Shown: positions 5,323-21,769, numbered from the stretch's first letter. The stretch is 64,000 nt of DNA from Candidatus Moraniibacteriota bacterium (GCA_016699425.1 CP064975.1:1149369-1213368), one strand, 5' to 3'. Notes: a model not told the origin generated them from the letters alone. A program made the numbers and translations.

Positions 5323-5341
5323 CTGTGATGGTATACTGAAG
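5323..5341 (+). promoter_or_regulatory. Extended -10 promoter motif CTGTGATGGTATACT upstream of the first LytR_C gene
   Basis: TGgTATACT at 5330-5338. The same 14-mer TGTGATGGTATACT recurs upstream of the second LytR_C gene at 23493-23508. Confidence 0.5.
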
Positions 5342-6045: not shown

Positions 6046-6078
6046 TCGCACGCTCCTTCGGAATATTATTTTCTTGCC

Positions 6079-7164
6079 ATGAGTATTTTCCGTCGCTGCC
6101 GAGAGCTTCTCCAGAAGGTGCTGGCGCTTCCCTTGGGGGTGTCGCTTTTGTTTGCGTTTCCGGCGAGCACGAACTTTCAATTGAAGGATTTCGGCTATGG
6201 CGGCGGCGGGGTGGCCAATGGGACCTCGACCAATTACGCCATCGAGGGTATCGCGGGTGAGCAGAACGCGACCGAGCTCAGTGGCACGACCTATGATCTG
6301 GGTCCTGGGCTGCAATTCACCAATCAAGCGAATGTGCCGCCAGCGCCGACCTTTACCAATCCAGCCAATTACTACAATAAACTGCAGCTGACACTGGCGA
6401 CCGGTGGAAATCCGAGCGATACCTTGTTCGCCATCGCCATTAGCACGGACAATTTCACGACAACGAACTATGTCCAGAGTGACAACACGGTGGGAGCTAC
6501 ACTCGGGCTCGAAGACTATCAGACGTATAGTGCTTGGGGTGGGGGATCGGGATTTCTGATTATTGGTCTCACAGCGTCGACGACGTACAAAGTGAAGGTG
6601 AAGGCTTGGCAGGGGAAATTCACCGAGACCGGGTATGGCCCAGAAGCGAGTGCTGCGACCGTCGGTGCCCGGCTGACCTTTGATATCGATGTCTCAGCCT
6701 CAGATACAGACACGGGGCCGCCCTATACGACGGACATCGGCAGTCTCATTGCGGGTACGGTGACCGATAGTCCAGAGAAGATCTGGGTCGATTTCGATAC
6801 AAATGGTGAGAGCGGTGGCCGAGTCTATGTCGTCGCTTCCAATGCCGGCCTTCAGAGCAGTCGGGCGGGCTACACGATCAGCTCGGTGACGGGTAATCTC
6901 ACGAGTCTCCCCGAAGGTTTCGGCGCTCAAGGTTCGAGTGCGACCCAGTCCGCGGGTGGTCCGTTTGCGGTCGCGACCGCCTACAACCTCGCCTCGAACA
7001 ATGTGGCGGTGACCGATACGACGATCCGAGAGATATTCACCTCGTCTGCTCCAGTGACGAGTGCCCGGGGATCGTTTCTCTTGAAGGCCAAATCCTCGGC
7101 GGTGACTCCGGCCGCCTCGGACTACACCGAAACCTTGACAGTTCTCGCTTCGGCAAGTTTCTGA
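6079..7164 (+). CDS. Secreted Thr/Gly-rich surface protein (paralog A) with a conserved C-terminal motif
   Basis: Signal peptide (LALPLGVSLLFAFPAS). Beta-rich low-complexity body. C-terminus ...AASDYTETLTVLASASF parallels the next gene. Confidence 0.5.
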   Translation: MSIFRRCRELLQKVLALPLGVSLLFAFPASTNFQLKDFGYGGGGVANGTSTNYAIEGIAGEQNATELSGTTYDLGPGLQFTNQANVPPAPTFTNPANYYNKLQLTLATGGNPSDTLFAIAISTDNFTTTNYVQSDNTVGATLGLEDYQTYSAWGGGSGFLIIGLTASTTYKVKVKAWQGKFTETGYGPEASAATVGARLTFDIDVSASDTDTGPPYTTDIGSLIAGTVTDSPEKIWVDFDTNGESGGRVYVVASNAGLQSSRAGYTISSVTGNLTSLPEGFGAQGSSATQSAGGPFAVATAYNLASNNVAVTDTTIREIFTSSAPVTSARGSFLLKAKSSAVTPAASDYTETLTVLASASF

Positions 7165-7233
7165 TCGGGTAGCCAAATCTGGATAGTATGTTGTATACTA
7201 TTATAAGTACCGTGTGAATAGGTGAGAGGATTA

Positions 7234-7262
7234 TTGACAGGCCACTTTTTTTCGTGTATACT
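7234..7262 (+). promoter_or_regulatory. Sigma70-type promoter TTGACA-17-TATACT
   Basis: TTGACA at 7234-7239, a 17-nt spacer, then TATACT at 7257-7262. Confidence 0.6.
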
Positions 7263-7277
7263 GGGTACATGAATGAG

Positions 7278-7313
7278 AAACGGGTGGCCATCATGGTATC
7301 CGTTTTCTTTTTT
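7278..7313 (+). terminator. Intrinsic-terminator-like hairpin plus U-tract in the leader of gene 7340 (alternatively the terminator of gene 6079..7164)
   Basis: Stem AAACGG / CCGTTT with a structured loop, followed by TCTTTTTT. Confidence 0.5.
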
Positions 7314-7339
7314 GGGATAGAATAAAATAAACATTCATT

Positions 7340-8401
7340 ATGGTCCGTTTCTCTGCAGTCCAAAAAACATCAATCCTTGAGATTTTCTCGCTGCTTTTGG
7401 TTGTCGTACTTCCATTGTTCCTTCCGACGCACTCGGCACAAGCAGCGGGTTTTCTTCAAACATGGGTGCGGCTTGATCGAATGAAAGCCTCGACCTTTAC
7501 GAGTGGCTTAGTGTGTGCTCAGACTCCGGCAACTGATACGGGCACCGAAGTCGATGTCCAAGTTGTCTTTCCGAGTGACTTTGTTGTTGGTACCACGCTC
7601 ACTGATTGGGCTGTGGCCACAACGGATCTTCCCTCGGGTGCTACGATATGGCCAGGCATTGGTCAAGCAACAGCGGCTAATAACACTACGAAAACAGTCA
7701 CTTTTCCATCAACCGCACTTACCACGAGCACGCTCTATTGCTTCCGGTGGACCAACAGTACAGCGGCCCTGCAAACTGGTTCAAGCGGAGCCAATAAGAC
7801 GGGTACCGTGACGACGCGGGCTACCGGACCGACAGATCTTGATTCCTCGGCATATTCGACGGCCATCGTTTCTGACGATCAGGTTGTCATTACAGCAACT
7901 GTTCCCGCCACGTTTAGTTTCAGTCTTCCCACTAACTCGATTGCGTTTCTATCCAATCTTACGACAACACCCGTTCTAACCAGTACCTCAGTAGCTACTA
8001 TCTCAACCAATGCAGCTTCGGGCTGGGTAGCCTGGGTGAAGAGTGCTAACGCTGCCCTCAGCTCGGTTTCGACTGGGGCATCGATACCAACTGCCGGATC
8101 GATTGATAATGCGGTGACAGATGTTGCTTCGACCAACGGATATTTCCTTGATGTTGCTTTCACAGATAGTGGCACTGGCACCGGGACTGTTACTCAAGCA
8201 GCTAATTATGGTCAGGAATACAATGGTGATGCTACGCATGGTGGGACACTTTCAACCACATTTCAACCAGTGGCTGCGAGTAGCGGTACTACTGACGGAG
8301 ATACGCTAACCTTTACGGCACTTGCAAGAATCTCGGCTATTCAGGCAGCAGCGACGGACTATACTGATACATTGACTATCGTGGCCGCGGGCCGGTTCTA
8401 A
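7340..8401 (+). CDS. Secreted Thr/Ala-rich surface protein (paralog B) with a conserved C-terminal motif
   Basis: Signal peptide ending SAQAAG. C-terminus ...AATDYTDTLTIVAAGRF parallels paralog A (DYT[ED]TLT[VI]xA..F). Confidence 0.5.
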   Translation: MVRFSAVQKTSILEIFSLLLVVVLPLFLPTHSAQAAGFLQTWVRLDRMKASTFTSGLVCAQTPATDTGTEVDVQVVFPSDFVVGTTLTDWAVATTDLPSGATIWPGIGQATAANNTTKTVTFPSTALTTSTLYCFRWTNSTAALQTGSSGANKTGTVTTRATGPTDLDSSAYSTAIVSDDQVVITATVPATFSFSLPTNSIAFLSNLTTTPVLTSTSVATISTNAASGWVAWVKSANAALSSVSTGASIPTAGSIDNAVTDVASTNGYFLDVAFTDSGTGTGTVTQAANYGQEYNGDATHGGTLSTTFQPVAASSGTTDGDTLTFTALARISAIQAAATDYTDTLTIVAAGRF

Positions 8402-8424
8402 AGGCAATTTTCAAAGTAACCACG

Positions 8425-8447
8425 AAATCCCCGTTCTGGGGATTTTT
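8425..8447 (+). terminator. Rho-independent terminator
   Basis: AAATCCCC-GTTCT-GGGGATTT followed by TTGC. Lies 24 nt after the 7340..8401 stop. Confidence 0.6.
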
Positions 8448-8563
8448 GCTTATTCTGGGCTCATTTCACGATTTCCGATATACTGGTAGTGAACCATTTT
8501 ATCTCTCCCCTACGACGCTCACGAAACCGATCCTGAGATATTCTTTCGCCCTGACGCTCGCGT

Positions 8564-9599
8564 TTGGGTTTTTCCTCCCCCCCACCCTCGCCTTCCGCCC
8601 AGGACGGATCCCTGCCTGACCGGCAGGCAGGCCTTCGCATCGTCACTTCCCCCCTCCCGATCTCACTCGTCGCCGAACCAGGGACGACCATCACGACCGA
8701 ACTGAAGGTGAAGAACGGCGGCACCGAACCTGAGACCCTGAAGATTGATATCCTGAAGTTCAACGCCTATGAAGACACGGGGAAGCCCGCCCTCCACGAC
8801 CTTGAACCGACGGATGAGTTCGCGAAATGGGTGACCTTCTCCGAACCGACCTTTACCGTGTTGCCCGAGGAGTGGAAGACGGTCACGGCCACGTTCACCG
8901 TCCCGGAGGAAGCCTCGTTCGGTTACTACTACGCCTTCGTTTTCTCTCGGGCCGAGGATCAGGAAGCCAAGCCTGGAGAGACGGCGGTCGTCGGCGGCAC
9001 GGCGACCCTCGTCCTCCTCGAAGCACGGGTACCAAATGCCTTGCGTGAGATCACCGTCACCGAGTTCTCGACGGACAAGACGGTCTATGAGTTCCTCCCG
9101 GTCAACTTCACCGTTTCTCTCAAGAATTCGGGCAATGTCCATGTCGCCCCGCGGGGCAATATCTTCCTCTCTCGGGGCAGTAACAAAGACATCGCCCTCC
9201 TCGAACTCAATTCCGGCAAGGGGAGCATCCTCCCGGATTCAACGCGTATCTTTGAGACGGGATGGAAGGATGGCTTCCCAGTTTACGAGGAAACGATCGA
9301 AAATGGCCAAGTCGTGCTCGATGAACTCGGTCATCAGACCTATCACCTGACCTGGGACTTCAAGAACGCTTCCCACCTCCCGTTTCGGCAAGTATACTGC
9401 CAAGATGCTCCTCGTTTACGATGATGGGACGCGGGACATCCCGATCGAGGGAGTGGTATCGTTTTGGGTGATGCCGTGGCGGTTGATTGCGGGGGCGGTG
9501 TTCAATTTCGCACTCATTATCGGACTCGGCTGGTATGTCATCCGCCTGCGCCGACGTTTGAAGCGGCTTCAATCAAATGATCAGTCACTCGTGAAATAG
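8564..9599 (+). pseudogene. Cell-surface beta-sandwich protein with a C-terminal TM anchor (duplicated family, copy 1); frameshifted
   Basis: Body ORF 8564..9424 continues as ORF 9405..9599 (TM tail WVMPWRLIAGAVF...) after a +1 C in a C-run near 9392. The signal-peptide region carries a further +C shift. Confidence 0.5.
8592..9530 (+). repeat. Tandem gene duplication, copy 1 (~940 bp, period ~1063 bp)
   Basis: Identical to 9655..10567 except for three short homopolymer indels. The shared antisense ORF N-termini (MNFRISIFRVSGSVPP...) confirm the repeat. Confidence 0.85.
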
Positions 9600-9602
9600 A
9601 GT

Positions 9603-10654
9603 ATGAAGTATTTCTTCCTCATCCTGACCATCGCTTTCCTCACCCCCTCCCTCGCTTCCGCCCAGGACGGATCCCTGCCTGACCGGCAGGCAGGCCTTCG
9701 CATCGTCACTTCCCCCCTCCCGATCTCACTCGTCGCCGAACCAGGGACGACCATCACGACCGAACTGAAGGTGAAGAACGGCGGCACCGAACCTGAGACC
9801 CTGAAGATTGATATCCTGAAGTTCAACGCCTATGAAGACACGGGGAAGCCCGCCCTCCACGACCTTGAACCGACGGATGAGTTCGCGAAATGGGTGACCT
9901 TCTCCGAACCGACCTTTACCGTGTTGCCCGAGGAGTGGAAGACGGTCACGGCCACGTTCACCGTCCCGGGAGGAAGCCTCGTTCGGTTACTACTACGCCT
10001 TCGTTTTCTCTCGGGCCGAGGATCAGGAAGCCAAGCCTGGAGAGACGGCGGTCGTCGGCGGCACGGCGACCCTCGTCCTCCTCGAAGCACGGGTACCAAA
10101 TGCCTTGCGTGAGATCACCGTCACCGAGTTCTCGACGGACAAGACGGTCTATGAGTTCCTCCCGGTCAACTTCACCGTTTCTCTCAAGAATTCGGGCAAT
10201 GTCCATGTCGCCCCGCGGCAATATCTTCCTCTCTCGGGGCAGTAACAAAGACATCGCCCTCCTCGAACTCAATTCCGGCAAGGGGAGCATCCTCCCGGAT
10301 TCAACGCGTATCTTTGAGACGGGATGGAAGGATGGCTTCCCAGTTTACGAGGAAACGATCGAAAATGGCCAAGTCGTGCTCGATGAACTCGGTCATCAGA
10401 CCTATCACCTGACCTGGGACTTCAAGAACGCTTCCCACCTCCGTTTCGGCAAGTATACTGCCAAGATGCTCCTCGTTTACGATGATGGGACGCGGGACAT
10501 CCCGATCGAGGGAGTGGTATCGTTTTGGGTGATGCCGTGGCGGTTGATTGCGGGGGCGGTGTTCATCGGCATCTTCTTCCTCATCGGTATGAAGTCAACT
10601 CTCTCAAAAATATGGAAACGTCTCTTCTCGCGTTCATCCGAAACTTCTGTCTGA
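9603..10654 (+). pseudogene. Cell-surface beta-sandwich protein with a C-terminal TM anchor (duplicated family, copy 2); two frameshifts
   Basis: Good signal peptide MKYFFLILTIAFLTPSLASA. A +G at about 9967 and a -GG at about 10212, relative to copy 1, split the reading frame across ORFs 9603.. and 9890..10654. Confidence 0.5.
9655..10567 (+). repeat. Tandem gene duplication, copy 2
   Basis: See copy 1. The flanking signal-peptide and C-terminal tail regions differ between the two copies. Confidence 0.85.
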
Positions 10655-11568
10655 TGCGGACTTGTTGGTGTCTTATTTTTGCCCTGTCGATACTCCTGTT
10701 GTACACCTCGATTGCTCAGGGTGCGGGTTTCACGGTGACCCCGATGATTCAGGAAGTAGTCTTGGGCGAAGGTGAAGCAGCGAAGACATACGACGCGACG
10801 GTTGCCAATGAGAGTGACAGTCTGGCGACACTTGAAATTTCAGTTATTGACTTTGGCAGCTTGGATGAATCCGGAGGCGTCGCATTCCTCGGTGCGTCGG
10901 GCGAATTGGACGAGCGGTATGCGCTCGCTTCTTGGATGCAGCCGGAGACAAGCGAGGTCACCCTCCAGCCCGGTGAGGTACGATCGGTCAAAGTGCGGAT
11001 TGAGAATCGTGAGAGTTTGTCGCCAGGTGGGCACTATGGGGCGCTGGTGTTCAAGACAGTCTCAACCACCAAACCAGATATCCCAAGTGTCGCCATCAAT
11101 CAGATATTTTCGTCGCTCGTTCTCGTGAAGAAAACTGGTGGGGCGGTTTACGGCCTTGATTTGGTCTCGGTCGAACATCCGGATCAGGTGTTTTCATTCG
11201 GCGCCACGGTTGTACCGCGTTTCAAGAATCCTGGCAATGTCCATGTCGTCCCTCGCGGCGTGGCGAGCGTGACGGATCCGTTGGGCCGGCTCGTCTATCG
11301 AGGCGTCCTCAATGAGGGGTCTGCCATTATCCTGCCTGAGACATTCCGTGAATTCCCGTTCAAGCTTTTCCCTGTGGAGAAAGCCTTTGTTCCAGGAGCG
11401 TATGTTCTGACGCTTCAGTACCGCTATGATGGGAAGGACGCCTTTGAGACCTGGTCGAAGCGTTCCTTCCTATTCCCTCCACTCCTTACGAGTATCTTGG
11501 CCGCACTTTTCACTCTCAGTCTTGTCGCCTTCGGTGTCCTCCGACGTCGAGGTCGCCGGTCTGTCTAG
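10654..11568 (+). CDS. Cell-surface beta-sandwich protein with a C-terminal TM anchor (diverged intact paralog of the duplicated family)
   Basis: ATG at 10654. Signal peptide ...SIAQGAG. Conserved FKNPGNVHVVPRG vs LKNSGNVHVAPRG in the duplicates. C-terminal TM plus basic tail RRRGRRSV. Confidence 0.6.
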   Translation: MRTCWCLIFALSILLLYTSIAQGAGFTVTPMIQEVVLGEGEAAKTYDATVANESDSLATLEISVIDFGSLDESGGVAFLGASGELDERYALASWMQPETSEVTLQPGEVRSVKVRIENRESLSPGGHYGALVFKTVSTTKPDIPSVAINQIFSSLVLVKKTGGAVYGLDLVSVEHPDQVFSFGATVVPRFKNPGNVHVVPRGVASVTDPLGRLVYRGVLNEGSAIILPETFREFPFKLFPVEKAFVPGAYVLTLQYRYDGKDAFETWSKRSFLFPPLLTSILAALFTLSLVAFGVLRRRGRRSV

Positions 11569-11614
11569 AAACACTCGTCGTCAGGCGGGGGTCAGCGTGT
11601 TAGGATATCGTCAT

Positions 11615-12241
11615 ATGGAGGAAGAAAAGATTGATAACATCGCTCATCGCCGGCCATCCCGTCGCTTAGTGTACTGGTTAGTAGTTTTGGTGCTGCTCAG
11701 TCTCATTCTCTGGTTTCTTTGGTGGCTGTTCCAGCGTCCATCGCATGGAACCGTATCGATTGCCCCGGCGGTCGAGAAAACGGACTACGCCGATCCCGAT
11801 CATCGCAAGCGCTATCAGGGAAAGTTCTTTACTTTCACGTACCCCTATGATTTCAATCGACGTGAAGAGGTAGAGACTGTCAAACATCCGCTGTTAGAGC
11901 GCGTTTACCTCTCACGGAGCGATATCGAGGGACGAAAAATTGCATTCACCCTGCAGGATAATTCTGGGTATGCCTTTGAAGAGTATTCGAGCTTCCGAAT
12001 GCGTGCGAATGATCCGGCAACCTATCGACAGGAGAAAATTGAGATAAATGGCTTGAACGCGGTCATCTTCACAAAAATTACGAGCGTTTTTGAAGAGAGT
12101 GCCTTTTTTCAGAACAATAACCGTGTCATGAGCGTTGTTGTTTCATCACCGACGACACAAAACGGGCTTCGAGAAGAGCTCGTGGCCATATTTGATTCGT
12201 TTGCTTGGATCAGCGAGAAATCTGAGCGAATTCAGCCTTGA
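11615..12241 (+). CDS. N-terminally TM-anchored hypothetical protein
   Basis: ATG at 11615 in frame within ORF 11426..12241. TM helix LVYWLVVLVLLSLILWFLWWLF. No recognisable domain. Confidence 0.45.
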   Translation: MEEEKIDNIAHRRPSRRLVYWLVVLVLLSLILWFLWWLFQRPSHGTVSIAPAVEKTDYADPDHRKRYQGKFFTFTYPYDFNRREEVETVKHPLLERVYLSRSDIEGRKIAFTLQDNSGYAFEEYSSFRMRANDPATYRQEKIEINGLNAVIFTKITSVFEESAFFQNNNRVMSVVVSSPTTQNGLREELVAIFDSFAWISEKSERIQP

Positions 12242-12279
12242 CACTGACGGGCATATTCCTTTTACTGGAGCCATTCTTT

Positions 12280-12288
12280 TGCTATACT
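12280..12288 (+). promoter_or_regulatory. Extended -10 element TGcTATACT upstream of the giant gene
   Basis: TG at 12280-81 and TATACT at 12283-88. A weak -35 TTTACT sits 16 nt upstream. Confidence 0.45.
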
Positions 12289-12305
12289 GTCAGCGTGTAA
12301 AGATT

Positions 12306-12339
12306 CTTGCTCCGACGGGTGAACGGAGCAAGGGTTTTT
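12306..12339 (+). terminator. Perfect 9-bp-stem hairpin plus U-tract between the promoter and the giant-gene start (terminator/attenuator-like)
   Basis: CTTGCTCCG-ACGGGTGAA-CGGAGCAAG followed by GGTTTTTC. Confidence 0.55.
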
Positions 12340-12373
12340 CATTATTCCGATAGAAAAATCGGAGCGTGCGTGT

Positions 12374-15300
12374 ATGTTGTCACCCAAAAAACACAAGCTC
12401 AAATCAAAAAATATTCAGCGCTCATTCCGCCGGTACTTCCCCGGTGTGGTTGGATTTTTTCTGCTCACGCTTGCATCGTTTCTCATCGCGACGGACATCG
12501 ATGCGGCGACGGGTATCAACAAGCAAATCAGTTTTCAGGGCAAGGTCGTGAATACGAACGGGACGAATGTCTCGAACGGGAGCTACAACTTCCTGTTCTG
12601 TCTCTACACGACTGCGAGTCCAGCGACGCCGTGTACGGCTGGATCAAACAATGATGCGGTCTGGCGTGAATCAAAAAGTCTCACGGTCACGGACGGCATC
12701 TTCCAATCAAATCTCGGCGATACTACAGCGCTCCCGGGTTCGGTGGATTTCAATACAGACAATATTTATCTCGGCATAAATTTCAATAGCGACGGGCAGA
12801 TGTCACCGCTTGTCCGATTCACGGCTGCGCCGTACGCGATGAACGCAGCGAAGGTCGGCGGGCTGACGGTGACGGACACGACCGGCACGCTCACGATCCC
12901 AAACGCCAAGACCGTTCAATTTGCGGATGCGTTTACGACGACGGGTGCATTTCCGTTGACACTGACGTCGACGGCCAGTACGACGGCGACACTGCCTTCG
13001 GGAACGATCACTCTGGTCGACCTGGCAACATCACAGTCGCTTACCAACAAAACAATCGGTTCGACAGGACTGACATTTTCCGGTGCGTCGACGGATATCA
13101 CGACGGCCACGGGCGAGGACCTGACAGTGGTGGCCAATGGGGCCGGGATAATCAATCTCAATGATTCGGTCACGACCGGTGCGCTCACCATTTCTGGTGC
13201 GACCACGGACATCACCACCGCATCGGGCGAGTCACTCGTCATCGTCGCCAACGGAGCGGGGGTCGTCGATATCCAGGATGCGACGACGGTGGATTCGCTC
13301 ACCGCAGACACCGGCGGCGTCTCGATCGCTAGTGGACAGAGCTATACCGGTGCCGGCGCGGTCACGCTTTCATCGGCTGCGACGACCGCCCTCACCGTCG
13401 ATTCGGGGACGACCGGTGCACTCAATCTCGGGACCAGCAACAATGCGAAGACCATCTCACTTGGTACCGGTACCGCCGGCAACACGATCAATGTCGGGAC
13501 AGACAACACGACCAAGGACACGATCAATATCGGCTCGGCGCTCGATGATGTCGCTATCACTGGCGACCAATGGAGTATCACGAATGCGGGAGTCTTGACC
13601 GTGGTGTCGTGTAGTGGGTGCGGGGGAGGCGGAGGGACACTCGATAGCGCGTACACGGCTGGCAATACGATTACAACGGACAGTGGGAACAATGTCATCA
13701 TCACGCTTCAAGAGGTGGCGACCCCGACATCGTTCGTCGTCGAGAATCAGGATACGGCGGGCGTCTCGGCGGAGCGGGTCTTCAACTCGATCGCCTCTGG
13801 CACGCTCACCAATGGACTGCTCATCGAACAGGCCGGTGCAGGTACGATGACCAATGCCATCCAGATTGCCGAGACCGCCGGGACCATCACTGATGGCATC
13901 CTCATCACTGGCACACTGGGCAATATCTTGAACTCCCCCTCGCTCGATATCACGGGTGCAGGGGCCATCACTGGTGCGACCGGGATTACCTCGGCGACGG
14001 GGGATATCACCGCTACGGCAGGGAACATCGTCTTGAATAGCACAACGCGGATCTCAAATGCTGGTGTCGGTACATTCATCACAGGCACAGTGATCGGTTC
14101 GCAGACCTTTACGACCAACAATATCGCTGACTCAGGCGCACTCACGATTGCTTCTGCTGCCGCATCGGCCCTGACCCTGAACTCGGGCACGACTGGGACG
14201 ATCGATATCGGGACAGATGCCAGCGCTGAGACGATCAATATCGGCAATACCGGTGCGGCCGTGAAGACGATCGCGATCGGCAACAACTCACAGGCCAACA
14301 CCATCACCATTGGTGATGCGTCGGCGACGAGCGTCTCCATCACGGACAATAACTGGTCGATTTCAACAGCGGGTGCTGGGGCATTTACTTCACTCTCATC
14401 CACGGGTGCCATCGCTGCCAACGGTGGCATCACCTTCGACAACACCTCCGACACCGTTGGTTCCTTCACCTCATCCGGCACCATCCTGATGAACTCGAAC
14501 ATCCTCCAAGATATCGGCAACACCGGTACCGACTTCATCGCCAGTACCGGAGCCCTCACCCTCGCCGGCGTGCTGACAGCCAATGGCGGCATCACCTTAG
14601 CGGGGAGCCAGTCCTTCGCGGCTTCCGCCCTCTCCTATATGGACCTCGGTCTCATCACGCACAGTACGACTGCCAATCAAGGCCTCCGTCTCCCCAATGC
14701 GGCGAGTGCTACCCCGTCCAACCCAACCTCAGGGGAAGGCTATCTCGCGTGGGATGCCGCGGGGAATCAGCTCATTACGTACAATGGGAGCGCGTGGACG
14801 ACTTTGACCGGCAGTGCTTCAGATCTCCAAACTGCCTATAATACCGACGCTGACGGATCGAACGCGACCATCTCCCTCACTGCCGCTGATGACGGCCTCA
14901 TCATCACCAACCCTACCTCAGCCGGTAACAACCTCTCCGCCTTCACCCTCCAAGTCTCCCAGCTCAATACGACCGCGGCGATCACGGCTATTGATATCAT
15001 CCAAGCGAGCAATGCGGCGAACGGGGTTGACATCACCGCCAACGCCATTGATACGGAAACAGCGCTCGCCGTGACGGCCAATGTTCTGACTTCCGGCAGA
15101 GCCCTCACCCTCGCCTCCTCCTCCGTCGCCTTCACCGGTGCCCTCGAATCCATCACCCTCTCTGGCTCCAATGCCGCCAATACCGGCAATCTCCTCCTCA
15201 TCGCTGACACCGGTGCTCTCAATACCACCACCTCCTTCAAAGTCACCGCCAATGGGGCGGCTACTCAGGTTGCTGCCTTGATCGAAAACACCGGCTCCGG

Positions 15301-18300
15301 TACGAGCTTCCGTGTCAACGATGTCGCCAGTGACACCGACCCCTTCCTCATCGACGCGACTGGCAATGTCGGTATCGGCGACGCTACCCCGAACACGATT
15401 CTGGACGTTCTCTCCTCGGGTGCCGCGGACACGGTCTTCACCCTGGCCAATACCAATGCTGGTGACTTTGATCCGATCGTGAAGTTTGAACTCACCGAAG
15501 GCACCCCCCTCTTCACCCTCGGCATCGATGACTCAGACTCCGACAAGTTCAAGATCTACTCTGGGGATGGTCTCGCCAGTGGGGATGAGTTTGTCATTGA
15601 CGCGAGCGGTACCACCACCATCGCTAACCTCAACCTGGGCGCTACCTCCTTTGATACCGATGCTGGGGCCGTGACCTGGATCGATATGCCGGTGACGAGC
15701 GGGGCGGCGGACAATACGGTGGAATCGTACACGTCGCAGCTCGATGGCCAGAGTATGCTCACGGTGTACGCCCTCTCCGATGGGGCGGGGAGCATCGATA
15801 CTCGGCGTGTCCAGCTCGGGGACGGCGGGGCAGGTGTGGCTCAGCCGGTTCTGCTTGGATTGGATGTCCGGACAGGCACGGGGGATCCGACGGATGGTTT
15901 CGAAGGGGCCATGTACTACAACACGACGGACAATGTCTTCCGCTGTTACCAAAACACCGGCTGGACGAACTGCATCGGTTCGGGTGGTTCCACCGACCTC
16001 CAGACCGCCTACAACACGGACGCTGACGGTACCAACGCGACTATCTCCCTCACCGCCGCTGACGATGGCCTCATCATCACCAACCCGACCTCGGCCGGCA
16101 ACAACCTCTCCGCCTTCACCCTCCAAGTCTCTCAGCTCAACACGACTGCTGCGATCACGGCCATCGATATCATCCAGGCATCCAATGCGGCGAACGGCGT
16201 CGACATTACCGCCAACGCGATCGATACCGAGACGGCCCTGACGGTCACTGCCAATGCGCTGACGACGGGCCGGGGCCTCTCGATCGATGCGGGCAATACG
16301 ATGACGACGGGCGGCGCGCTCAGTATCAGCGGTACGACCTATGTTCATGGCGCGGAGACGGGGAGCCTTGTGAGCTTGGCCGTTACCGACGCGACGACGG
16401 CGGCAGTAACCAGTACGACCAACACCCTTCTCGTATCGCCCACGATCAATGCTCCCTCGGGTGCCGCAACGAGAACTATAAGCGGTGTTTCTGTCACTCC
16501 GACAACGACGGCCTGTGCCGCCGGTACCTGTGCCGTGAACGGTTTCAATGTGGGCGCTATCACCGAAGGTGCTGACGCAGCGAGATTCGCGAGTACAGCA
16601 CTCAATATCGGCACGGGTTGGGACACCTTCCTCGACACGGCTTCCCTTGATATCACCGGCGCGGGGGCCATCACCGGCGCGACGGGTGTTTCGACTACGA
16701 CGGTGACGGCCTCATCCACCATCGCGGCCAATGGTGGCATCACCTTCGACAACAACACCGACACCGTCGGCTCGTTCACCTCATCCGGCACCATCCTGAT
16801 GAACTCGAACATCCTGCAGGATATCGGCAATACCGGCACTGACTTCATCGCCAGTACCGGGGCCCTCACCCTCGCCGGCGTCCTCACAGCGAACGGCGGC
16901 ATCACCCTCGCGGCGAGCCAGACCTTCACGGGTTCGTCGCTCTCGTACATGGACCTGGGTGCCATCACGCACGGGACGACGGCAGTGCAGGGACTCCGAT
17001 TGCCGCAGGCGGCGAGCGCCAGCCCGTCGAGTCCGAGCTCGGGCGAGGGTTACCTGGCCTGGGACGCGGGCGGCAACCAGGTCATCTATTACAACGGCGC
17101 GGCCTGGGCGACATTTGGTGCGGGCGGCGGTTATAATTTGATCAAAGATGAAGCCTCAAGCCTTACGGCCCGGACCACGCTCGCCTTCCTCGGTGCGGGC
17201 GTATCGTGTGCGGACAATGCGTCGCAGACCGAGTGTACGATTTCAGGCGGCGCGGGCTCGGATCTGCAGGGGACCTATGGCGCTGATGCCGATGGTTCGA
17301 ATGCGACCATCTCGCTCACCAGCGCGGATGACTCGCTCGTCATCCGTAACCCGTCCTCGGCGGGCACCGACTCGGCCTTTACCTTCAAGGTGGAACAGCT
17401 CAATACCGGGATCGACAATGACGTCATCTATGCCGACAACCGCGGCACGGGCGACGGTCTCCGTATCGATGACACGTCTGGTGATACGACACCGTTTATC
17501 GTTGACCAGCATGGTCGGGTAGGCATCGGGACAGCGTCTATAAGTGGAAATGCTTCCACAGAGCGTCTGTTACAGGTTGGTTCCGAGACTACGCGCGGAA
17601 ATTCGGCGACCTATGGGGAAATAATCAGTAAGGGGCTGAATAGGCATACAGCTCTCACCAACATTCAAGACATCTTTGTCTATGATACGACAGGGGATAG
17701 TGATGGCGGACGTTGGATCGATTGGGCGACCACGGACAACCTGTCTTGGTACTCTGAAACACTTGATGATGGACCAAATGATCCGTGTAATATTGCCAGC
17801 GATGACCGTTGCTATAATAGCTCTTTTCCCCGGAAAGCCATCCTGGTCGTAACGACCGATGCTCTCTATATCTTCGACGCAGCGACGAACGACATGTGGA
17901 TGAAGTTTAGTCAGAATGCTTCGGGATATGCTCTCGGGGTAGATACCAACAATGATCCCTCGAGTGTTCATGCGCTGAATGGTGTCGTCTATGTTGGTGC
18001 CAACGGTACATCAGCTGGTGGTTTGTACGCCATCGACTTCGTGAATGATCGCATGTGGAACTACGGTGGCACCAATCGTTCTGCGGCGGATACTGGTATC
18101 AGCGGACGCAATGCTGCGGTGACATACAATGTCGACAGCAATGCCAAGCTTGAAATCTCACCCGTTGGGACACAGGCAGAATGGGAGCGAGTGAACGATG
18201 TCCATGCAGTGGTGATGTCGCGCACCCAATCAGCGGTAACGGCTCTCGGTAGTGCAACCAATACGAACCCTGGCTATGGTAAAGTCTTTATTGGACTTGC

Positions 18301-21300
18301 GACCGACTCTGGGGTAACGATAATCAACCCATCGGGCCAAGTCTTGAACCAGTATTCGGATGTCACCGCCGATGATTACACAGCGGTCGCACTCTCAAGC
18401 AGAGGGTTTATGTATGCGCTCAATACCACGCAGGACCAACTCGAGCGCTGGGATACGATTGACACTGATAAGGCGAGTGAGGTGAATGGTACGTTTAGTC
18501 GTAAATGGGATGAGACGATTGGGACTGGCCCAGCCCTCGCTTCGGCGACCTTCAATATTGTGGCTGGGATGCCAGATAACCTGGAGATTGCCGAACGCGC
18601 CTCGAATAATTTGAACACGGAAGACGTTATTTATGTTGGCCATAGTCTTGGCATGGCGGAACTGCATGAACATACGACGCAGGCCTTTGGCTGGGTCAAG
18701 CATTACAATGCAACCCGTCAAACGCCGATGATGATGCTCGCTGGTATAAATGATATGGTGCTTCCCATGGACGATACCTCTGGAACCCAGGCGCAGGACC
18801 TCGCTATCGCCAATACGGACATGGCCATCAAAGGAACACCAACGCTCGGGGTGAACGGTGTGCAGGGCAAGGCAATAAACTTCGATAATACCGACGATTA
18901 TCTGTGTTCTGATAATGATCAGAACAATACCTGCGATGTCGATACCGCTTTTAATATGTCGACGGTCGGTTGGACGCTCAGTCTGTGGTTTCGGCATTCG
19001 ACCACAGCACCGGCCTCGGGTGTCGATATGCTTTTTGAAAAATGCGTGACGGCGACACCGGGCCAGGCGATAGGCTGCGTAGCCGCCTACATGACTACTA
19101 CCGGTGTAGTAGTAGTTGCCAATGATGATGATGCGACTTGGACCCAAGGGTCGTCGTATGATATTACCGCTACCTCGACCTATGCTTACAATGACAACCA
19201 GTGGCACAACCTGATTATCACAAGAACCAACGCCAACGACGTGGATTCCTGGATCGATGGGCAGGGCATGAACCTTTCCACGGCTACCGGTCTGACAGCT
19301 ACGTTTGACGGTTCGCAGATCGTCAGTATTGGTGCTTCCTGTGTGACGACAGTGACCGCCAACTGTGGTGCAGCCACAAATTTCTGGGATGGCCAAATTG
19401 ACGATGTGCAATACATTGTCGGGACAACGACACAAGCGACCATGACTCAGCTCTATGTTCGCCGGTATTTCAATGTGGAACGACCCCGGGCGAGCAAGAA
19501 AACGGTATCTGTGACCAACGCTACCTCAGCTTCCTCGACTTCTTTGACCGATACGGGGGAGGCTTGGTATGTAAACGAATTTGCCGGACAGATTGTCGAG
19601 ATTACGGGGAGTGACGATGCGGATTGTATCGGCATCACACGACGTATCTCCTCCAACACGGCCACAGCACTCACTTTTACCCCGGCCGTACCGGGAGCGT
19701 GTACCATGGATACTTCGGCTGACTTTCGGATTGATCCAGAGAAGCTCTATGGTGCATCGAGTAGTATTGCCGGCATCGGCATTACGGCAGAAACGCCGCT
19801 TGGTGAAGCCCGTCAACTGTGTGTGGGAACCAATAGTGGCACCGATACGGGTGGTGTGACTTGTTATAACCATCAAGACGGCCCGAGTATCGTGGCTGAC
19901 GTCTATCATAGCCAAGCGAGCAAAACAGATGATAGCGGCACGGACTGGACAGGAACGGATTATGACGACATACGGGCAGTCGATCTTTCTTCTCGAACGC
20001 TCATCATAGCTTCCGAAGGACACTTTACCAGCAGAACGGAAGACGTGCGTCTGGGGCAAGGTCTGGAATATATCAGTAACCAACTCTATGCCATTCGTCA
20101 GGAAATCGTTCTCGACGGTATCACAGCGGTCGGGAGTACGGGTTCAGAAATCGGTTTCACTGGTGGGGCGGACTTGGCGGAGCGGTACTATTCGAATGAG
20201 GCGCTCGTAGCGGGCGAGGTGGTCGCGATTGATTCGTCTCTGGAGGCGGGCGTGAAGAAAACTGTCGGGGCGTATCAGCGTGATGTGCTCGGTATAGTGG
20301 CGACGACTCCTGGCATCGTCCTCGGCGCCGAGGCGGAAAACGGGTATCCGATCGCGCTCGTCGGCCGTGTCCCGGTGAAGGTGACGAATGAAAATGGCCA
20401 GATCTATGCGGGTGACCGGGTGACCGCCGCGAGCCGGCCGGGTCATGCCATGCTCGCGACTCAGGCCGGCCGCGTCATCGGCCAGGCGCTGGGCGATGCG
20501 GTCGACTGGACGGTCTGTGAAGGGGAGGACCCGTTGAATCACGATGCCGTACTCTGCACGACGGTCATGGTCTTCGTCAATCTGTCGGACTACTACGGCC
20601 AGCCAGTCGAGCTCGCCATGGCGGCCCGTGATGCGGCGGATGCAGCTCTGGCTCCGGAGGTCGGGGACGAGGAGCTGGGACTGTCCGGTGCGGGTACTAC
20701 GGTCCGGCTCGTGACGGCCGCTCCGACACGGGAGGAGAAAATCATGGCGTTTCTGAAGGAAATCCGTGACGAGCGGGCGCAGTCAAACGCTGCTCCGTCC
20801 GAAGTCTTCACCGATCGGGTGGCTGCCAGTACCGAGATCATCACACCGAAATTGATCGTCGATGAGATATTTGCGAAGTCGATCAAGGCGGACAGTATCG
20901 AAGGGCTGTCTATCTGGACGGATCAGATTGCATCACTCCAGGAAAAGTATGCTGGGCTCGAGGCGGCTCCTCTGACGGATACGACTGGTACCTCGGCTGT
21001 GCCTCCATCCCTCGCGGTCGCGATGAAACAGCTCGCCACGGATTCGATCACGGTGCAGCTCGATGGTTCTATCCTCGGCAAACTCTCGGTCGAGGGGGCA
21101 CTCCGGATTGGCGGGGATGCACAGTTCGATGGCAACACGGTCTTTGCCAGGCTCGCCTCCTTCCTCGGCGATACGTTGTTCCAGGGCAAGGTGTTCTTTG
21201 AGCAAGCACCGACCTTTGGTTCAAATACGGCGGGCTTCGCCCTCATCGAACAGGGAGCGAAACACGTGCGGGTGAGTTTCGATGAGTCGTATGAGGAGCA

Positions 21301-21769
21301 ACCGATCGTGACCATCACCCTCGCCCGCGACACCTCACTCCTCCTCGATGAAGCAGCCAGTGCTGAGCTGAAGGCCGATGTTGCCGCAGTGGACCAGGAC
21401 TTCGCCGAGACGGTCTTCGAGAGTGATGTCCGGTATATCATCACTGAGAAAGACCAGACGGGCTTCACCATCCTGCTCTCGGAGGCGGCGCCGGTCGATC
21501 TCCAGTTCAGCTGGGTCGCGCTCGCCGTGAAAGGCGCGAAGCCTTTTGTCTCGGACAAGCGTGAAACGTCAAACCAGGGAGAGAGTGAGACAGTAATACC
21601 GGTACCGGAACCCGCGACCCCTCCATCTCAAGTAGGGGTGGAACCAGAACCGGCACCGACGCCACTCCCCGAGACCCTGCCCGCGGATACCTCATCTGAC
21701 GAAGCGTCTCCTCCAGACACGGATCCACCGGTGGCCTCCTCGGACATCCCGCCCTCGGGCACCATCTAA
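12374..21769 (+). CDS. Giant (3131 aa) cell-surface fibre/adhesin-like protein
   Basis: Uninterrupted ATG ORF. N-terminal signal-anchor. Long Thr/Gly/Ala-rich beta-strand repeats (ITGAGAITGATGIT...). A large internal repeat pair. A LamG/concanavalin-like segment at about 18.8-19.5 kb. A Pro-rich C-terminal tail. Confidence 0.85.
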   Translation: MLSPKKHKLKSKNIQRSFRRYFPGVVGFFLLTLASFLIATDIDAATGINKQISFQGKVVNTNGTNVSNGSYNFLFCLYTTASPATPCTAGSNNDAVWRESKSLTVTDGIFQSNLGDTTALPGSVDFNTDNIYLGINFNSDGQMSPLVRFTAAPYAMNAAKVGGLTVTDTTGTLTIPNAKTVQFADAFTTTGAFPLTLTSTASTTATLPSGTITLVDLATSQSLTNKTIGSTGLTFSGASTDITTATGEDLTVVANGAGIINLNDSVTTGALTISGATTDITTASGESLVIVANGAGVVDIQDATTVDSLTADTGGVSIASGQSYTGAGAVTLSSAATTALTVDSGTTGALNLGTSNNAKTISLGTGTAGNTINVGTDNTTKDTINIGSALDDVAITGDQWSITNAGVLTVVSCSGCGGGGGTLDSAYTAGNTITTDSGNNVIITLQEVATPTSFVVENQDTAGVSAERVFNSIASGTLTNGLLIEQAGAGTMTNAIQIAETAGTITDGILITGTLGNILNSPSLDITGAGAITGATGITSATGDITATAGNIVLNSTTRISNAGVGTFITGTVIGSQTFTTNNIADSGALTIASAAASALTLNSGTTGTIDIGTDASAETINIGNTGAAVKTIAIGNNSQANTITIGDASATSVSITDNNWSISTAGAGAFTSLSSTGAIAANGGITFDNTSDTVGSFTSSGTILMNSNILQDIGNTGTDFIASTGALTLAGVLTANGGITLAGSQSFAASALSYMDLGLITHSTTANQGLRLPNAASATPSNPTSGEGYLAWDAAGNQLITYNGSAWTTLTGSASDLQTAYNTDADGSNATISLTAADDGLIITNPTSAGNNLSAFTLQVSQLNTTAAITAIDIIQASNAANGVDITANAIDTETALAVTANVLTSGRALTLASSSVAFTGALESITLSGSNAANTGNLLLIADTGALNTTTSFKVTANGAATQVAALIENTGSGTSFRVNDVASDTDPFLIDATGNVGIGDATPNTILDVLSSGAADTVFTLANTNAGDFDPIVKFELTEGTPLFTLGIDDSDSDKFKIYSGDGLASGDEFVIDASGTTTIANLNLGATSFDTDAGAVTWIDMPVTSGAADNTVESYTSQLDGQSMLTVYALSDGAGSIDTRRVQLGDGGAGVAQPVLLGLDVRTGTGDPTDGFEGAMYYNTTDNVFRCYQNTGWTNCIGSGGSTDLQTAYNTDADGTNATISLTAADDGLIITNPTSAGNNLSAFTLQVSQLNTTAAITAIDIIQASNAANGVDITANAIDTETALTVTANALTTGRGLSIDAGNTMTTGGALSISGTTYVHGAETGSLVSLAVTDATTAAVTSTTNTLLVSPTINAPSGAATRTISGVSVTPTTTACAAGTCAVNGFNVGAITEGADAARFASTALNIGTGWDTFLDTASLDITGAGAITGATGVSTTTVTASSTIAANGGITFDNNTDTVGSFTSSGTILMNSNILQDIGNTGTDFIASTGALTLAGVLTANGGITLAASQTFTGSSLSYMDLGAITHGTTAVQGLRLPQAASASPSSPSSGEGYLAWDAGGNQVIYYNGAAWATFGAGGGYNLIKDEASSLTARTTLAFLGAGVSCADNASQTECTISGGAGSDLQGTYGADADGSNATISLTSADDSLVIRNPSSAGTDSAFTFKVEQLNTGIDNDVIYADNRGTGDGLRIDDTSGDTTPFIVDQHGRVGIGTASISGNASTERLLQVGSETTRGNSATYGEIISKGLNRHTALTNIQDIFVYDTTGDSDGGRWIDWATTDNLSWYSETLDDGPNDPCNIASDDRCYNSSFPRKAILVVTTDALYIFDAATNDMWMKFSQNASGYALGVDTNNDPSSVHALNGVVYVGANGTSAGGLYAIDFVNDRMWNYGGTNRSAADTGISGRNAAVTYNVDSNAKLEISPVGTQAEWERVNDVHAVVMSRTQSAVTALGSATNTNPGYGKVFIGLATDSGVTIINPSGQVLNQYSDVTADDYTAVALSSRGFMYALNTTQDQLERWDTIDTDKASEVNGTFSRKWDETIGTGPALASATFNIVAGMPDNLEIAERASNNLNTEDVIYVGHSLGMAELHEHTTQAFGWVKHYNATRQTPMMMLAGINDMVLPMDDTSGTQAQDLAIANTDMAIKGTPTLGVNGVQGKAINFDNTDDYLCSDNDQNNTCDVDTAFNMSTVGWTLSLWFRHSTTAPASGVDMLFEKCVTATPGQAIGCVAAYMTTTGVVVVANDDDATWTQGSSYDITATSTYAYNDNQWHNLIITRTNANDVDSWIDGQGMNLSTATGLTATFDGSQIVSIGASCVTTVTANCGAATNFWDGQIDDVQYIVGTTTQATMTQLYVRRYFNVERPRASKKTVSVTNATSASSTSLTDTGEAWYVNEFAGQIVEITGSDDADCIGITRRISSNTATALTFTPAVPGACTMDTSADFRIDPEKLYGASSSIAGIGITAETPLGEARQLCVGTNSGTDTGGVTCYNHQDGPSIVADVYHSQASKTDDSGTDWTGTDYDDIRAVDLSSRTLIIASEGHFTSRTEDVRLGQGLEYISNQLYAIRQEIVLDGITAVGSTGSEIGFTGGADLAERYYSNEALVAGEVVAIDSSLEAGVKKTVGAYQRDVLGIVATTPGIVLGAEAENGYPIALVGRVPVKVTNENGQIYAGDRVTAASRPGHAMLATQAGRVIGQALGDAVDWTVCEGEDPLNHDAVLCTTVMVFVNLSDYYGQPVELAMAARDAADAALAPEVGDEELGLSGAGTTVRLVTAAPTREEKIMAFLKEIRDERAQSNAAPSEVFTDRVAASTEIITPKLIVDEIFAKSIKADSIEGLSIWTDQIASLQEKYAGLEAAPLTDTTGTSAVPPSLAVAMKQLATDSITVQLDGSILGKLSVEGALRIGGDAQFDGNTVFARLASFLGDTLFQGKVFFEQAPTFGSNTAGFALIEQGAKHVRVSFDESYEEQPIVTITLARDTSLLLDEAASAELKADVAAVDQDFAETVFESDVRYIITEKDQTGFTILLSEAAPVDLQFSWVALAVKGAKPFVSDKRETSNQGESETVIPVPEPATPPSQVGVEPEPAPTPLPETLPADTSSDEASPPDTDPPVASSDIPPSGTI
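14822..15075 (+). repeat. Intragenic repeat unit B, copy 1 (DLQTAYNTDADG...IDTETAL module)
   Basis: Roughly 90% nucleotide and near-identical amino-acid match to 15995..16250. A second module (ANGGITFDN...YNGSAWTT) also recurs, at about 14397-14810 and 16720-17110. Confidence 0.8.
15995..16250 (+). repeat. Intragenic repeat unit B, copy 2
   Basis: See copy 1. Synonymous-site divergence suggests an old duplication maintained at the protein level. Confidence 0.8.

Follow-up and report, generated by a model that had tools for sequence, protein, structure and literature searches.

The cluster described here is carried by a Candidatus Moraniibacteriota MAG and occupies positions 6079-21769 of the window, the whole 64,000-nucleotide stretch of DNA that was analysed. 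The original prediction had placed four classes of genes in this interval, and all were found there on the + strand (Table 1): two Thr-rich secreted proteins (ThrA and ThrB), three beta-sandwich/TM proteins (tandem copies A and B of sand1, and sand3), a small TM protein, and a protein of 3131 aa.

Table 1. Features of the cluster and its flanks, in window coordinates
Feature	Position	Strand	Remarks
14-mer TGTGATGGTATACT	5324..5337	+	extended -10-like TGgTATACT; upstream of first LytR_C gene
First LytR_C-domain membrane protein	5389-6045	+	PF13399 E=4.1e-9; flanks cluster
ThrA	6079-7164	+	ORF, 361 aa, 13% Thr; secreted, Thr/Ser/Gly-rich; C-terminal end DYTETLTVLASASF
Promoter-like site TTGACA-17-TATACT	7234..7262	+	11/12 matches, consensus only; upstream of ThrB
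ThrB	7340-8401	+	ORF, 353 aa, 19% Thr; secreted, Thr-rich; C-terminal end DYTDTLTIVAAGRF
Terminator-like hairpin	8424..8446	+	10-bp stem, then T-rich tail; directly 3' of ThrB
sand1 copy A, WxLIP-like	8489-9599 (approx.; start uncertain)	+	fn3_5 E=1.2e-7, PF06030 E=0.022
sand1 copy B, WxLIP-like	9603-10654	+	ectodomain as copy A; beta-type TM/tail ..VFIGIFFLIGMKSTLSKIWKRLF..
sand3, WxLIP-like	10654-11568	+	PF06030 E=1.4e-3; 100% identical to P0121
Small TM protein	11615-12241	+	N-terminal TM anchor and ~160-aa extracytoplasmic domain
Promoter-like site TTTACT-16-TATACT	12261..12288	+	TG before it; consensus match only; upstream of giant gene
Giant protein	12374-21769	+	3131 aa, Thr/Ala/Gly-rich; N-terminal signal/anchor, internal repeats, Pro-rich C-terminal tail
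Second 14-mer TGTGATGGTATACT and second LytR_C gene	23494-23507 and 23517-24257	+	exact repeat of 14-mer

ThrA and ThrB, both with signal peptides, are acidic, Thr/Ser/Ala-rich, secreted beta-sandwich proteins, and the view that they are paralogs with a common C-terminal motif holds, since both end in DYT[ED]TLT. ThrA consists of beta-rich modules at the N-terminus followed by a C-terminal domain of ~130 aa in common with ThrB; ThrB has two beta-sandwich domains (~40-177 and ~190-353), and its invariant C-terminus reads DYTDTLT[VI][VI]AAGRF. Pairwise BLASTP of the window copies is significant only over the last 30 residues (47% identity, E=5e-5); among homologues in related loci, the match widens to the ~130-aa C-terminal domain at ~30% identity. 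ThrA, which has no match in Pfam or NCBIfam, is 55-83% identical to its orthologues in four related loci (L001-L004). The site ahead of ThrB is the best promoter-like match within 4700-24000, and together with the terminator-like hairpin behind the gene it suggests that ThrB may form its own transcription unit.

The three beta-sandwich/TM paralogs were likewise recovered as foreseen, with a KN[SP]GNVHV[AV]PRG block common to all three, sand3 being only 25% identical to the tandem sand1 pair. The sand3 start and the stop codon of copy B overlap (TGATG), and NCBI places the beginning of the gene at 10612; the 304-aa product has a signal peptide, two beta-sandwich domains, a TM-like segment (272-297), and an RRRGRR tail. 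Copy A combines its ectodomain with an alpha-type TM/tail (..VFNFALIIGLGWYVIRLRRRLKRL..). The two sand1 copies are 100% identical over ~913 bp except for four homopolymer-length indels, which have broken the sand1 reading frames in this assembly; copy B contains two frameshifts and, once corrected, encodes 351 aa, ending in a TM helix followed by a basic tail. Identical ectodomains with two different tails are also seen in L004 and 16 further genomes. Across 17 of the 19 genomes with tandem sand1-type copies the ectodomain DNA is 99.3-100% identical, and the distinct TM/tail types recur from genome to genome; this pattern, which was unexpected, indicates gene conversion.

The likeness of these proteins to a DUF916/DUF3324 (CscA-like) architecture is supported by profile comparisons. 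A WxLIP was taken to have a signal peptide, ~320-380 aa, and a single C-terminal TM helix, an architecture found in both sand3 (304 aa) and corrected sand1 copy B. Under Pfam's rule, the N-terminal domain of sand1 counts as fn3_5. Sub-threshold PF06030 matches at E<=0.1 were obtained for 51/53 sand3-family members (best E=1.2e-6), and the window copies, at 19.1 bits (sand3) and 15.2 bits, lie under the gathering score of 27.3; a few relatives carry a precomputed PF06030 assignment. PF11797 (DUF3324) has no match in the window copies or in any family member. With hhalign, sand3 matched one Listeria WxLIP at 91.5% and two real WxLIPs at 94.3% (E=1e-7, 221 columns), and sand1 matched two real WxLIPs at 88.6% (E=2.7e-6, 253 columns), the latter two alignments covering both domains; controls (other beta-sandwich families, ThrB or WxL, against WxLIP) gave 0.4-7%. 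These two alignments run through the WxLIP HBD (DUF3324) region, which directly follows DUF916 (PGBD) in WxLIPs (template columns 17-276 and 46-315 of 354). The conserved N-terminal strand of WxLIPs is NQIDKxxxYFDLK (PMC10599100); the consensus of the WxLIP-like family, tVsP.FQEI.L, was aligned by hhalign to ..NQ...TYFDL.., and is shorter and conserved in part only. These comparisons support sand1 and sand3 as specific remote WxLIP/CscA homologues, in the sense of remote homology, not of threshold membership.

The proposal that the Thr-rich C-terminus is a WxL-like domain was not sustained. PF13731 (WxL) gave no match at E<=1 in any of 56 ThrB-family members, hhalign of the Thr-rich proteins against a 100-sequence WxL alignment returned probabilities of 4%, 0.2%, and 0.17%, and a WxL HMM run on 150 real C-terminal domains scored means of -0.9/-1.5 bits, which is not above reversed or shuffled copies. 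A WxL domain carries a pair of conserved Trp-x-Leu motifs on neighbouring strands, and the second of them lies close to the C-terminus (PMC9772566). At the corresponding positions ThrB has G-W-V-A (228-231) and T-L-T-I-V-A (344-349), and ThrA has G-R-V-Y where the ThrB motif aligns and T-L-T-V-L-A at its C-terminus; the defining Trp and Leu are mostly substituted, and of both motifs only the first Trp of ThrB is retained. Small WxL proteins were taken to be secreted proteins with the domain at the C-terminus and ~106 residues between the motifs. Both ThrA and ThrB have a C-terminal domain in a secreted protein, and in ThrB W229 and V347 are spaced by 118, and the corresponding distance in the Listeria WxL protein P0241 is 120. 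In each of the latter two a strand/tight-turn/G-W strand hairpin lies this far ahead of the C-terminal strand, the terminal EE--EEEEEE element with Y..TLT is identical in ThrB and WxL, and the AF2 models (pLDDT 90.4 for ThrB, 90.7 for WxL) are both beta-sandwiches with collinear secondary-structure strings. For ThrA and ThrB, the presumed partners of the WxLIP-like proteins, true WxL identity cannot be demonstrated; what remains of the WxL idea is the pairing with WxLIP homologues, the collinear motif and secondary-structure pattern, and the pilin-like beta-sandwich fold class.

The small TM protein, which evolves fast, was found by tblastn in 15/34 loci, its orthologues in L003 and L004 being 27-32% identical. 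The giant protein has no sequence match in the PDB; it contains internal repeats that are 83-84% identical in DNA and a weak LamG-like segment (aa 2264-2347; Laminin_G_2 E=3e-4, just under threshold), and its N-terminal region, conserved at 55-84%, is present in 33/34 loci. It is likely to be a fibre or adhesin.

In the csc clusters of Bacilli, CscA is a WxLIP (DUF916 + DUF3324 + TM), CscB and CscC are small and large WxL proteins, and CscD is an LPxTG protein (PMC1534035, PMC9772566, PMC10599100). Two real WxL clusters (L006 and L008) combine a single WxLIP with several small secreted proteins, a further small protein, and a very large one. The Patescibacteria cluster resembles this arrangement in its consecutive genes, in its several small secreted beta-sandwich proteins with a common C-terminal domain that ends in a Y..TLT strand (with the G-W hairpin of ThrB ~120 aa upstream), in its membrane-anchored homologues of WxLIP, built of a signal peptide, a pair of Ig-like domains, and a TM helix at the C-terminal end, and in the combination of a small membrane- or wall-tethered protein with a very large surface protein. 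It differs in that the WxL domain is not detectable, the W and L residues of the motif being replaced; in that it has neither a sortase nor an LPxTG motif in any cluster protein, the small TM protein included; in that the giant protein is anchored N-terminally and has no Y..TLT or WxL-like C-terminus, and that the cluster contains no large WxL protein; in that its WxLIP-like genes number two to three, where one is typical, and combine gene-converted ectodomains with alternative TM tails; and in belonging to the phylum Patescibacteria rather than to Firmicutes. It accordingly falls outside the csc type of Siezen (2006), which includes a small LPxTG protein of the CscD type and a large CscC-type protein whose C-terminal domain is WxL. 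Nor does it fit the definition of a WxL cluster by Hassan et al. (2023), which requires one or more WxLIPs next to two or more WxL proteins in a span of four genes: the cluster has WxLIP-like genes, but the two candidate partners beside them fail the WxL tests. Of the predicted csc/WxL-like complex, then, the WxLIP/CscA homology of the beta-sandwich/TM proteins is supported and the WxL homology of the Thr-rich proteins is not.

Co-conservation across Patescibacteria, counted in 34 species-level loci with enough flanking sequence, is strong. The main components recur in 32-34 of these (ThrA 32, sand1 34, sand3 33, N-terminus of the giant protein 33), and the lack of co-conservation that would have spoken against the predicted cluster was not what was found. 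Gene order is unchanged in L002-L004; an Andersenbacteria genome has the complete gene set in a different arrangement. In some genomes the cluster lies directly downstream of type IV pilus genes.

Taken together, these results point, with moderate confidence, to the locus as a candidate Patescibacteria-wide, non-covalent surface protein complex built around remote WxLIP/CscA homologues. In such a complex the sand1 and sand3 proteins would sit in the membrane with their ectodomains facing outside, and would capture secreted ThrA and ThrB through their common C-terminal pilin-like beta-sandwich domain, probably by beta-strand complementation, as in the strand-insertion model predicted with AlphaFold2 for WxLIP-WxL pairs of Firmicutes (PMC10599100). 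The captured proteins would be displayed on the cell wall and would do the work of WxL proteins, either as WxL domains that have diverged extremely or as analogues. ThrB is probably the abundant structural component, because it has its own strong promoter-like site and a terminator-like hairpin; the 3131-aa protein would be the extended fibre or adhesin. The complex would probably serve episymbiotic attachment of the cell to a host or surface, and a conserved surface gene set with WxLIP relatives in these ultra-small bacteria is thus a candidate attachment apparatus.

The same transcription signals of ThrB, which are like those of major-subunit genes, are consistent with a monoderm donor-strand fibre system, in which ThrB would be a putative pilin-like major subunit assembled by donor-strand exchange, ThrA an adaptor or minor subunit, and the giant protein a tip or companion adhesin, with sand1 and sand3 acting like PapD-type chaperones or assembly platforms. 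ThrB is also unusually conserved (~60% identity across orders), with R44, D46, and R47 invariant at its mature N-terminus (..Q.YVRLDRLKAST), and WxLIPs, with two perpendicular Ig-like domains, are predicted strand donors (PMC10599100). Chaperone-usher and other donor-strand pili (archaic Csu/CupE SCPU, Fim/Pap, Ecp, archaeal cannulae, bundling pili, TasA) share Ig-like or pilin-like beta-sandwich subunits with the cluster, and its two-Ig-like-domain partner recalls PapD-type chaperones. The C-terminal Y-x-D-T-x-T-V strand presumably resembles the last strand of SCPU pilins. However, the model of the ThrB monomer is both confident and complete, no strand being obviously absent from it, and this reading seems unlikely. 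Unlike chaperone-usher systems, the cluster has no usher or outer membrane, its chaperone-like protein is membrane-anchored, and any polymerisation is putative; PF05229 and pilin families gave no match at E<=1. Two-domain Gram-positive adhesins and surface modules (MSCRAMM N2-N3, cohesin dyads, BslA/YweA) are also dissimilar, with low TM-scores (<=0.26 on the query) and with sequence similarity, a wall-sorting signal, and a dockerin/cohesin context all absent here.

Rather improbable, in our judgement, is the idea that ThrA and ThrB serve as structural proteins of a generic envelope or S-layer type, that the two-Ig-domain membrane proteins have another role such as envelope biogenesis, and that the WxLIP similarity reflects shared Ig-like tandem ancestry only. 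The composition of ThrA and ThrB, which have no family assignment, their lack of a WxL signal by hhalign or HMM, and the LytR_C, SpoIID, and glycosyltransferase genes that are neighbours in some loci would fit this idea, but the six-part set is very tightly co-inherited even after rearrangement, the match to WxLIP is specific when set against the controls, Pfam searches detected no S-layer anchoring domain of a known kind, and the high conservation of ThrB contrasts with the usually poor conservation of S-layer proteins. The cluster might also be an accessory module of the upstream type IV pilus, for example a pilus-associated adhesin with anchoring factors. In the window and in ~10/78 related loci it is directly preceded, on the same strand, by PilC and pilin genes, ahead of which a PAS histidine kinase and a response regulator are often found; L002 and L004, which were retrieved separately, carry PilB as well. 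This reading appears very unlikely: L001, L003, and most of the 78 loci have the cluster without nearby pilus genes, and the N_methyl (prepilin) motif matches only in the upstream genes at 1395-4730, with none in ThrA, ThrB, the giant protein, or the small TM protein.

The cluster had also been described as bracketed by two LytR_C genes with identical promoter 14-mers. Both genes and both 14-mers are present; the bracket, however, is not conserved, because only the upstream LytR_C gene recurs (just before ThrA in 14/34 related loci, with no downstream LytR_C gene seen in related loci) and because the giant gene is separated from the second LytR_C gene by a beta-lactamase-family gene (22441-23472). 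That second LytR_C gene is probably a downstream neighbour that lies outside the conserved cluster. TATACT recurs as a -10-like hexamer ahead of several cluster genes, and the 14-mer, allowing <=2 mismatches, occurs 3 times in the window where 0.21 occurrences would be expected; a count of 3 was reached in 0/100 shuffles.

All gene classes named in the original prediction are present in the window where it had placed them, and their features are collected in the table. Three beta-sandwich genes are indeed found, but rather than three equivalent paralogs they are one distinct gene, sand3, and a tandem pair, sand1 copies A and B. A protein of a Candidatus Moraniibacteriota MAG (IPJ68_06130) matches sand3 at 100% identity, which places the window in a Patescibacteria (CPR) genome. 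The stop codon of sand1 copy B overlaps the sand3 ATG (TGATG, 10652-10656), which suggests translational coupling of the two genes; the NCBI gene call starts sand3 at 10612, 42 nt further upstream. The giant protein has a hydrophobic segment at its N-terminus, internal repeats that are 83-84% identical, and a weak LamG match; it has no LPxTG or WxL-like end, and a sequence search finds no PDB relatives. Within the N-terminus of the secreted protein ThrA (6079-6400), an S-T-N-[FY]-x-[LI] ... G-G-G motif is duplicated (STNFQLKDFGYGGGG ... STNYAIEGIAGE) and is followed by an Fn3-like segment; 'SxNY' hairpin repeats of this type are common among CPR surface proteins. The cluster is preceded on its own strand by PilC and by four or five pilin genes that have N_methyl motifs; it is followed by a gene of the beta-lactamase family, the second LytR_C gene, dnaG, and rpoD. 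PilB, PilC, and 4-6 pilin-like genes make up a type IV pilus block directly 5' of the cluster in the window (100-5280) and in about 10 of 78 related loci, and likewise in L002 (1-8000) and L004 (1-8800); PAS/CHASE4 histidine kinases together with a response regulator often precede this block.

Features of the surface-protein cluster and the three types of sand1 membrane tail
Feature	Position	Strand	Description
ThrA	6079-7164	+	acidic, signal peptide, 13% Thr; C-terminal end DYTETLTVLASASF
Promoter-like site TTGACA-17-TATACT	7234-7262	+	best promoter-like match in the region; upstream of ThrB
ThrB	7340-8401	+	acidic, signal peptide, 19% Thr; C-terminal end DYTDTLTIVAAGRF
Terminator-like hairpin	8424-8446	+	directly 3' of ThrB
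sand1 copy A	about 8489-9599	+	tandem partner of copy B
sand1 copy B	9603-10654	+	tandem partner of copy A
sand3	10654-11568	+	distinct third beta-sandwich gene
Small TM protein	11615-12241	+	as originally described
Giant protein, 3131 aa	12374-21769	+	as originally described
sand1 tail alpha			..VFNFALIVGL.LYVIRLRRRLKRL..
sand1 tail beta			..LF.FIG.[KR]STL..IW..
sand1 tail gamma			..IALPVIPALFVYFFMKWRMRK..

The beta-sandwich/TM proteins had been likened to DUF916/DUF3324 (CscA-like) proteins, and profile comparisons bear this out. With single window sequences, matches to PF06030 (DUF916/WxLIP_PGBD) are sub-threshold (E=1.4e-3 for sand3 and 0.022 for sand1, which also gives a formally significant match to fn3_5); within the sand3 family alignment, 51 of the 53 members match PF06030, the best with E=1.2e-6. 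The comparison set consists of two genuine WxL clusters, Listeria L006 and L008, each having a WxL-interacting protein (WxLIP) that carries PF06030 and PF11797. In hhalign, the sand3 family alignment gives 91.5% against the Listeria WxLIP and 94.3% against both WxLIPs (E=1e-7, 221 columns across both domains), and with 76 sand1 proteins, aligned independently, the value is 88.6% (E=2.7e-6, 253 columns). Because the controls are low (0.4% for ThrB versus WxLIP, 7% for WxL versus WxLIP, and about 2% for sand1 or sand3 versus ThrB), the similarity, as judged from sequence profiles, is specific rather than a generic effect of the Ig fold. A PDB sequence search with the sand3 profile returned nothing meaningful. 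The sand proteins also agree with the published WxLIP architecture of a signal peptide, two Ig-like domains, and a C-terminal TM (PMC10599100).

ThrA and ThrB, whose C-terminus had been compared to that of WxL domains, give a different result. In a direct pairwise comparison the two proteins match significantly only across their last 30 residues; with homologues included, the similarity covers about 130 aa as a C-terminal domain, at about 30% identity. The ThrB family has more than 931 matches at about 60% identity, all annotated 'hypothetical' and none with a Pfam domain. The WxL domain itself, PF13731, is found by Pfam scan in 0 of 56 family members at E<=1. A WxL alignment of 100 real sequences was obtained by searching exhaustively from a Listeria WxL protein, itself retrieved with a CscB fragment of the supplementary alignment of Siezen 2006. 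Against this alignment, ThrB gives 4% in hhalign, limited to 'DYTDTLT' versus 'gtYqsTLTW', and the combined ThrA and ThrB C-terminal alignments (61 and 153 sequences) give about 0.2%; with a WxL HMM, 150 real C-terminal domains score no higher than their reversed or shuffled versions. Every one of these comparisons is negative, and homology of ThrA/ThrB to WxL domains is thus not supported. Relaxed alignments do place the FG..., TNAxxG[WY]xV, and Y..TLT motifs in register, the distance from the G-W strand to the terminal strand is 118 residues in ThrB and 120 in the Listeria WxL protein, and the AF2 secondary-structure strings of the two domains are collinear, both ending EE--EEEEEE; the collinear motifs are seen by eye and are without statistical support. 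The structural hit lists of ThrB and WxL have 14 entries in common, within a fold class that is very common. Structural searches of the PDB yield nothing beyond Ig-like, pilin, and cohesin neighbours of a generic kind, and PDB sequence searches with the ThrB profile and the ThrB C-terminus yield nothing meaningful. An outer-membrane beta-barrel reading of the C-terminal ..GRF of ThrB was rejected because the predicted model consists of two sandwiches, not a barrel.

In comparison with csc/WxL clusters, then, the locus is partly homologous and is proposed to work alike, but it falls outside the definition of such clusters because WxL domains cannot be demonstrated in it and both an LPxTG protein and a large WxL protein are missing. 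Support for the csc-like complex proposed originally comes from the relationship of sand1 and sand3 to WxLIPs. WxL systems are described as predominantly from Firmicutes (>91% of WxL sequences; PMC9772566), and a literature search found no published link between WxL or DUF916 and Patescibacteria/CPR. The sand1 and sand3 families widen the described range of WxLIP (DUF916/DUF3324) to a distant phylum.

The genes of the cluster are kept together in related genomes. Four loci reached through ThrB homologues all have ThrA, sand3, the small TM protein, and the giant gene, together with one or two copies each of ThrB and sand1; in an Andersenbacteria genome the gene order is rearranged. A scan of species-representative genomes gives at least 150 genomes with a ThrB relative, from which 78 loci were kept, most of them under the label Moraniibacteriota and some as Andersenbacteria, Saccharibacteria, Berkelbacteria, or Paceibacteria. 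In the 34 loci whose flanks are long enough, ThrA is present in 32, sand1 in 34, sand3 in 33, and the giant N-terminus in 33; the fast-evolving small TM protein is detected in 15. Searches of plasmids by tblastn with ThrB and sand3 give no match. Many public MAG contigs that bear the cluster (L012, L015, L017-L023, and others) go under the titles 'uncultured Bdellovibrionales', 'Gammaproteobacteria' or 'Pseudomonadales', probably because the records are taxonomically mislabelled or because host sequences were binned with them.

The sand1 pair has an unusual relationship. In the window, the DNA of the two copies is identical across about 913 bp (8592-9504 versus 9655-10565) except for four homopolymer-length indels in C-runs and G-runs (at about 8578-8590, 8904/9968, 9152/10217, and 9379/10441). 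These frameshift both genes, and are probably sequencing errors rather than marks of pseudogenes; when corrected, sand1 encodes 351 aa with a signal peptide, ectodomain, TM helix, and basic tail. Nineteen genomes have sand1 as a tandem pair, and in 17 of them the ectodomain-coding DNA of the two copies matches at 99.3-100% identity across 880-960 bp (identical-pair loci: the window, L004 12374-14494, L012, L016, L018-L021, L025, L028, L029, L034, L041, L058, L065, L066, L068, L069, and L084), whereas ectodomains differ by 20-50% between genomes. The copies split exactly after a conserved 'VPWR', just before the TM helix, and continue into one of three TM/tail types, alpha, beta, or gamma, which recur across genomes; the window has alpha and beta. 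An assembly artefact was rejected as the cause of the identical copies, since the same pattern is present in 17 independent assemblies. This pattern bears the signature of gene conversion that is still ongoing, in which one ectodomain is maintained on two or three membrane anchors and both copies are retained by selection, and it provides a clean natural case of conversion, with ectodomains identical within a genome and distinct anchors recurring between genomes. One Moranbacteria locus (L058, 11111-14200) apparently has sand1 in at least three copies: gamma and alpha tails are present, with further matches at 13207 and 13629. Such an array would hold all of the tail types.

We consider it somewhat probable that the locus encodes a WxLIP-centred, non-covalent surface complex. 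Within this complex, the membrane-anchored sand proteins would keep ThrA and ThrB on the cell surface by way of the C-terminal domain that these two have in common, plausibly by strand complementation, as has been predicted for WxLIP-WxL pairs (PMC10599100), and the giant protein would serve as a fibre or adhesin. A donor-strand fibre with ThrB as its subunit is possible but unlikely. For a genuine WxL domain (AF2 model of Listeria P0241, L006 8001-8603), the closest solved structures are mostly donor-strand-complemented pilins (CsuA/B, FimG, EcpD, CanX, CupE, CS20, and CS17), which suggests that WxLIP-WxL pairs may work like a chaperone-subunit pair, a statement that was not found in the WxL literature searched. 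Improbable, too, is a set of envelope or S-layer proteins whose Ig-domain neighbours are unrelated to them; the specific sand1/sand3-WxLIP similarity counts against it. Least likely, and by our estimate very improbable, is a type IV pilus accessory module: only about 10 of the 78 loci have pilus genes beside the cluster, which argues that the cluster is not simply a pilus accessory.

To our knowledge, little is known of host attachment by ultra-small episymbiotic Patescibacteria beyond type IV pili, and the six-part locus, with its very highly conserved secreted protein and a putative 3000-aa fibre, is a concrete candidate for this function. A bolder proposal, which we regard as doubtful, is that of a previously unrecognised CPR surface organelle, in which WxLIP-like chaperone/anchor platforms would hold or polymerise pilin-like ThrB by donor-strand complementation, with ThrA as adaptor and the 3000-aa fibre carried along. 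If true, these episymbionts would attach to their hosts by means of this organelle, the WxL/WxLIP systems of Gram-positive bacteria would be variants, along with chaperone-usher pili, of one ancient donor-strand principle, and identical sand1 ectodomains, by sitting on different TM tails, would link a single extracellular assembly to more than one membrane or cytoplasmic partner.

The original prediction also held that two LytR_C genes with identical promoter 14-mers bracket the cluster. The 14-mer TGTGATGGTATACT does lie upstream of both genes, but only the upstream LytR_C gene is conserved with the cluster, and then in 14 of 34 loci. Allowing <=2 mismatches, the 14-mer has 3 matches in the window versus 0.21 expected; it is essentially an extended -10 box, and TATACT is also present before other cluster genes. 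The promoter-like site 5' of ThrB and the terminator-like hairpin on its 3' side fit a structural gene that would be expressed separately and strongly.

Elsewhere in the window, Rfam identifies a group I intron over its full length (RF00028, 76 bits) at 29171-29473 (+), and the 3' end of an ORF weakly resembling HNH endonucleases (28936-29259) overlaps it. No host rRNA or tRNA gene is detected around it by Rfam and ARAGORN, and ARAGORN finds no tRNA genes in the whole 64 kb. The intron borders a stretch of low GC (30-34 kb, about 40% versus about 55% elsewhere), which contains Ham1, ABC-transporter, and peptidase S51 genes.
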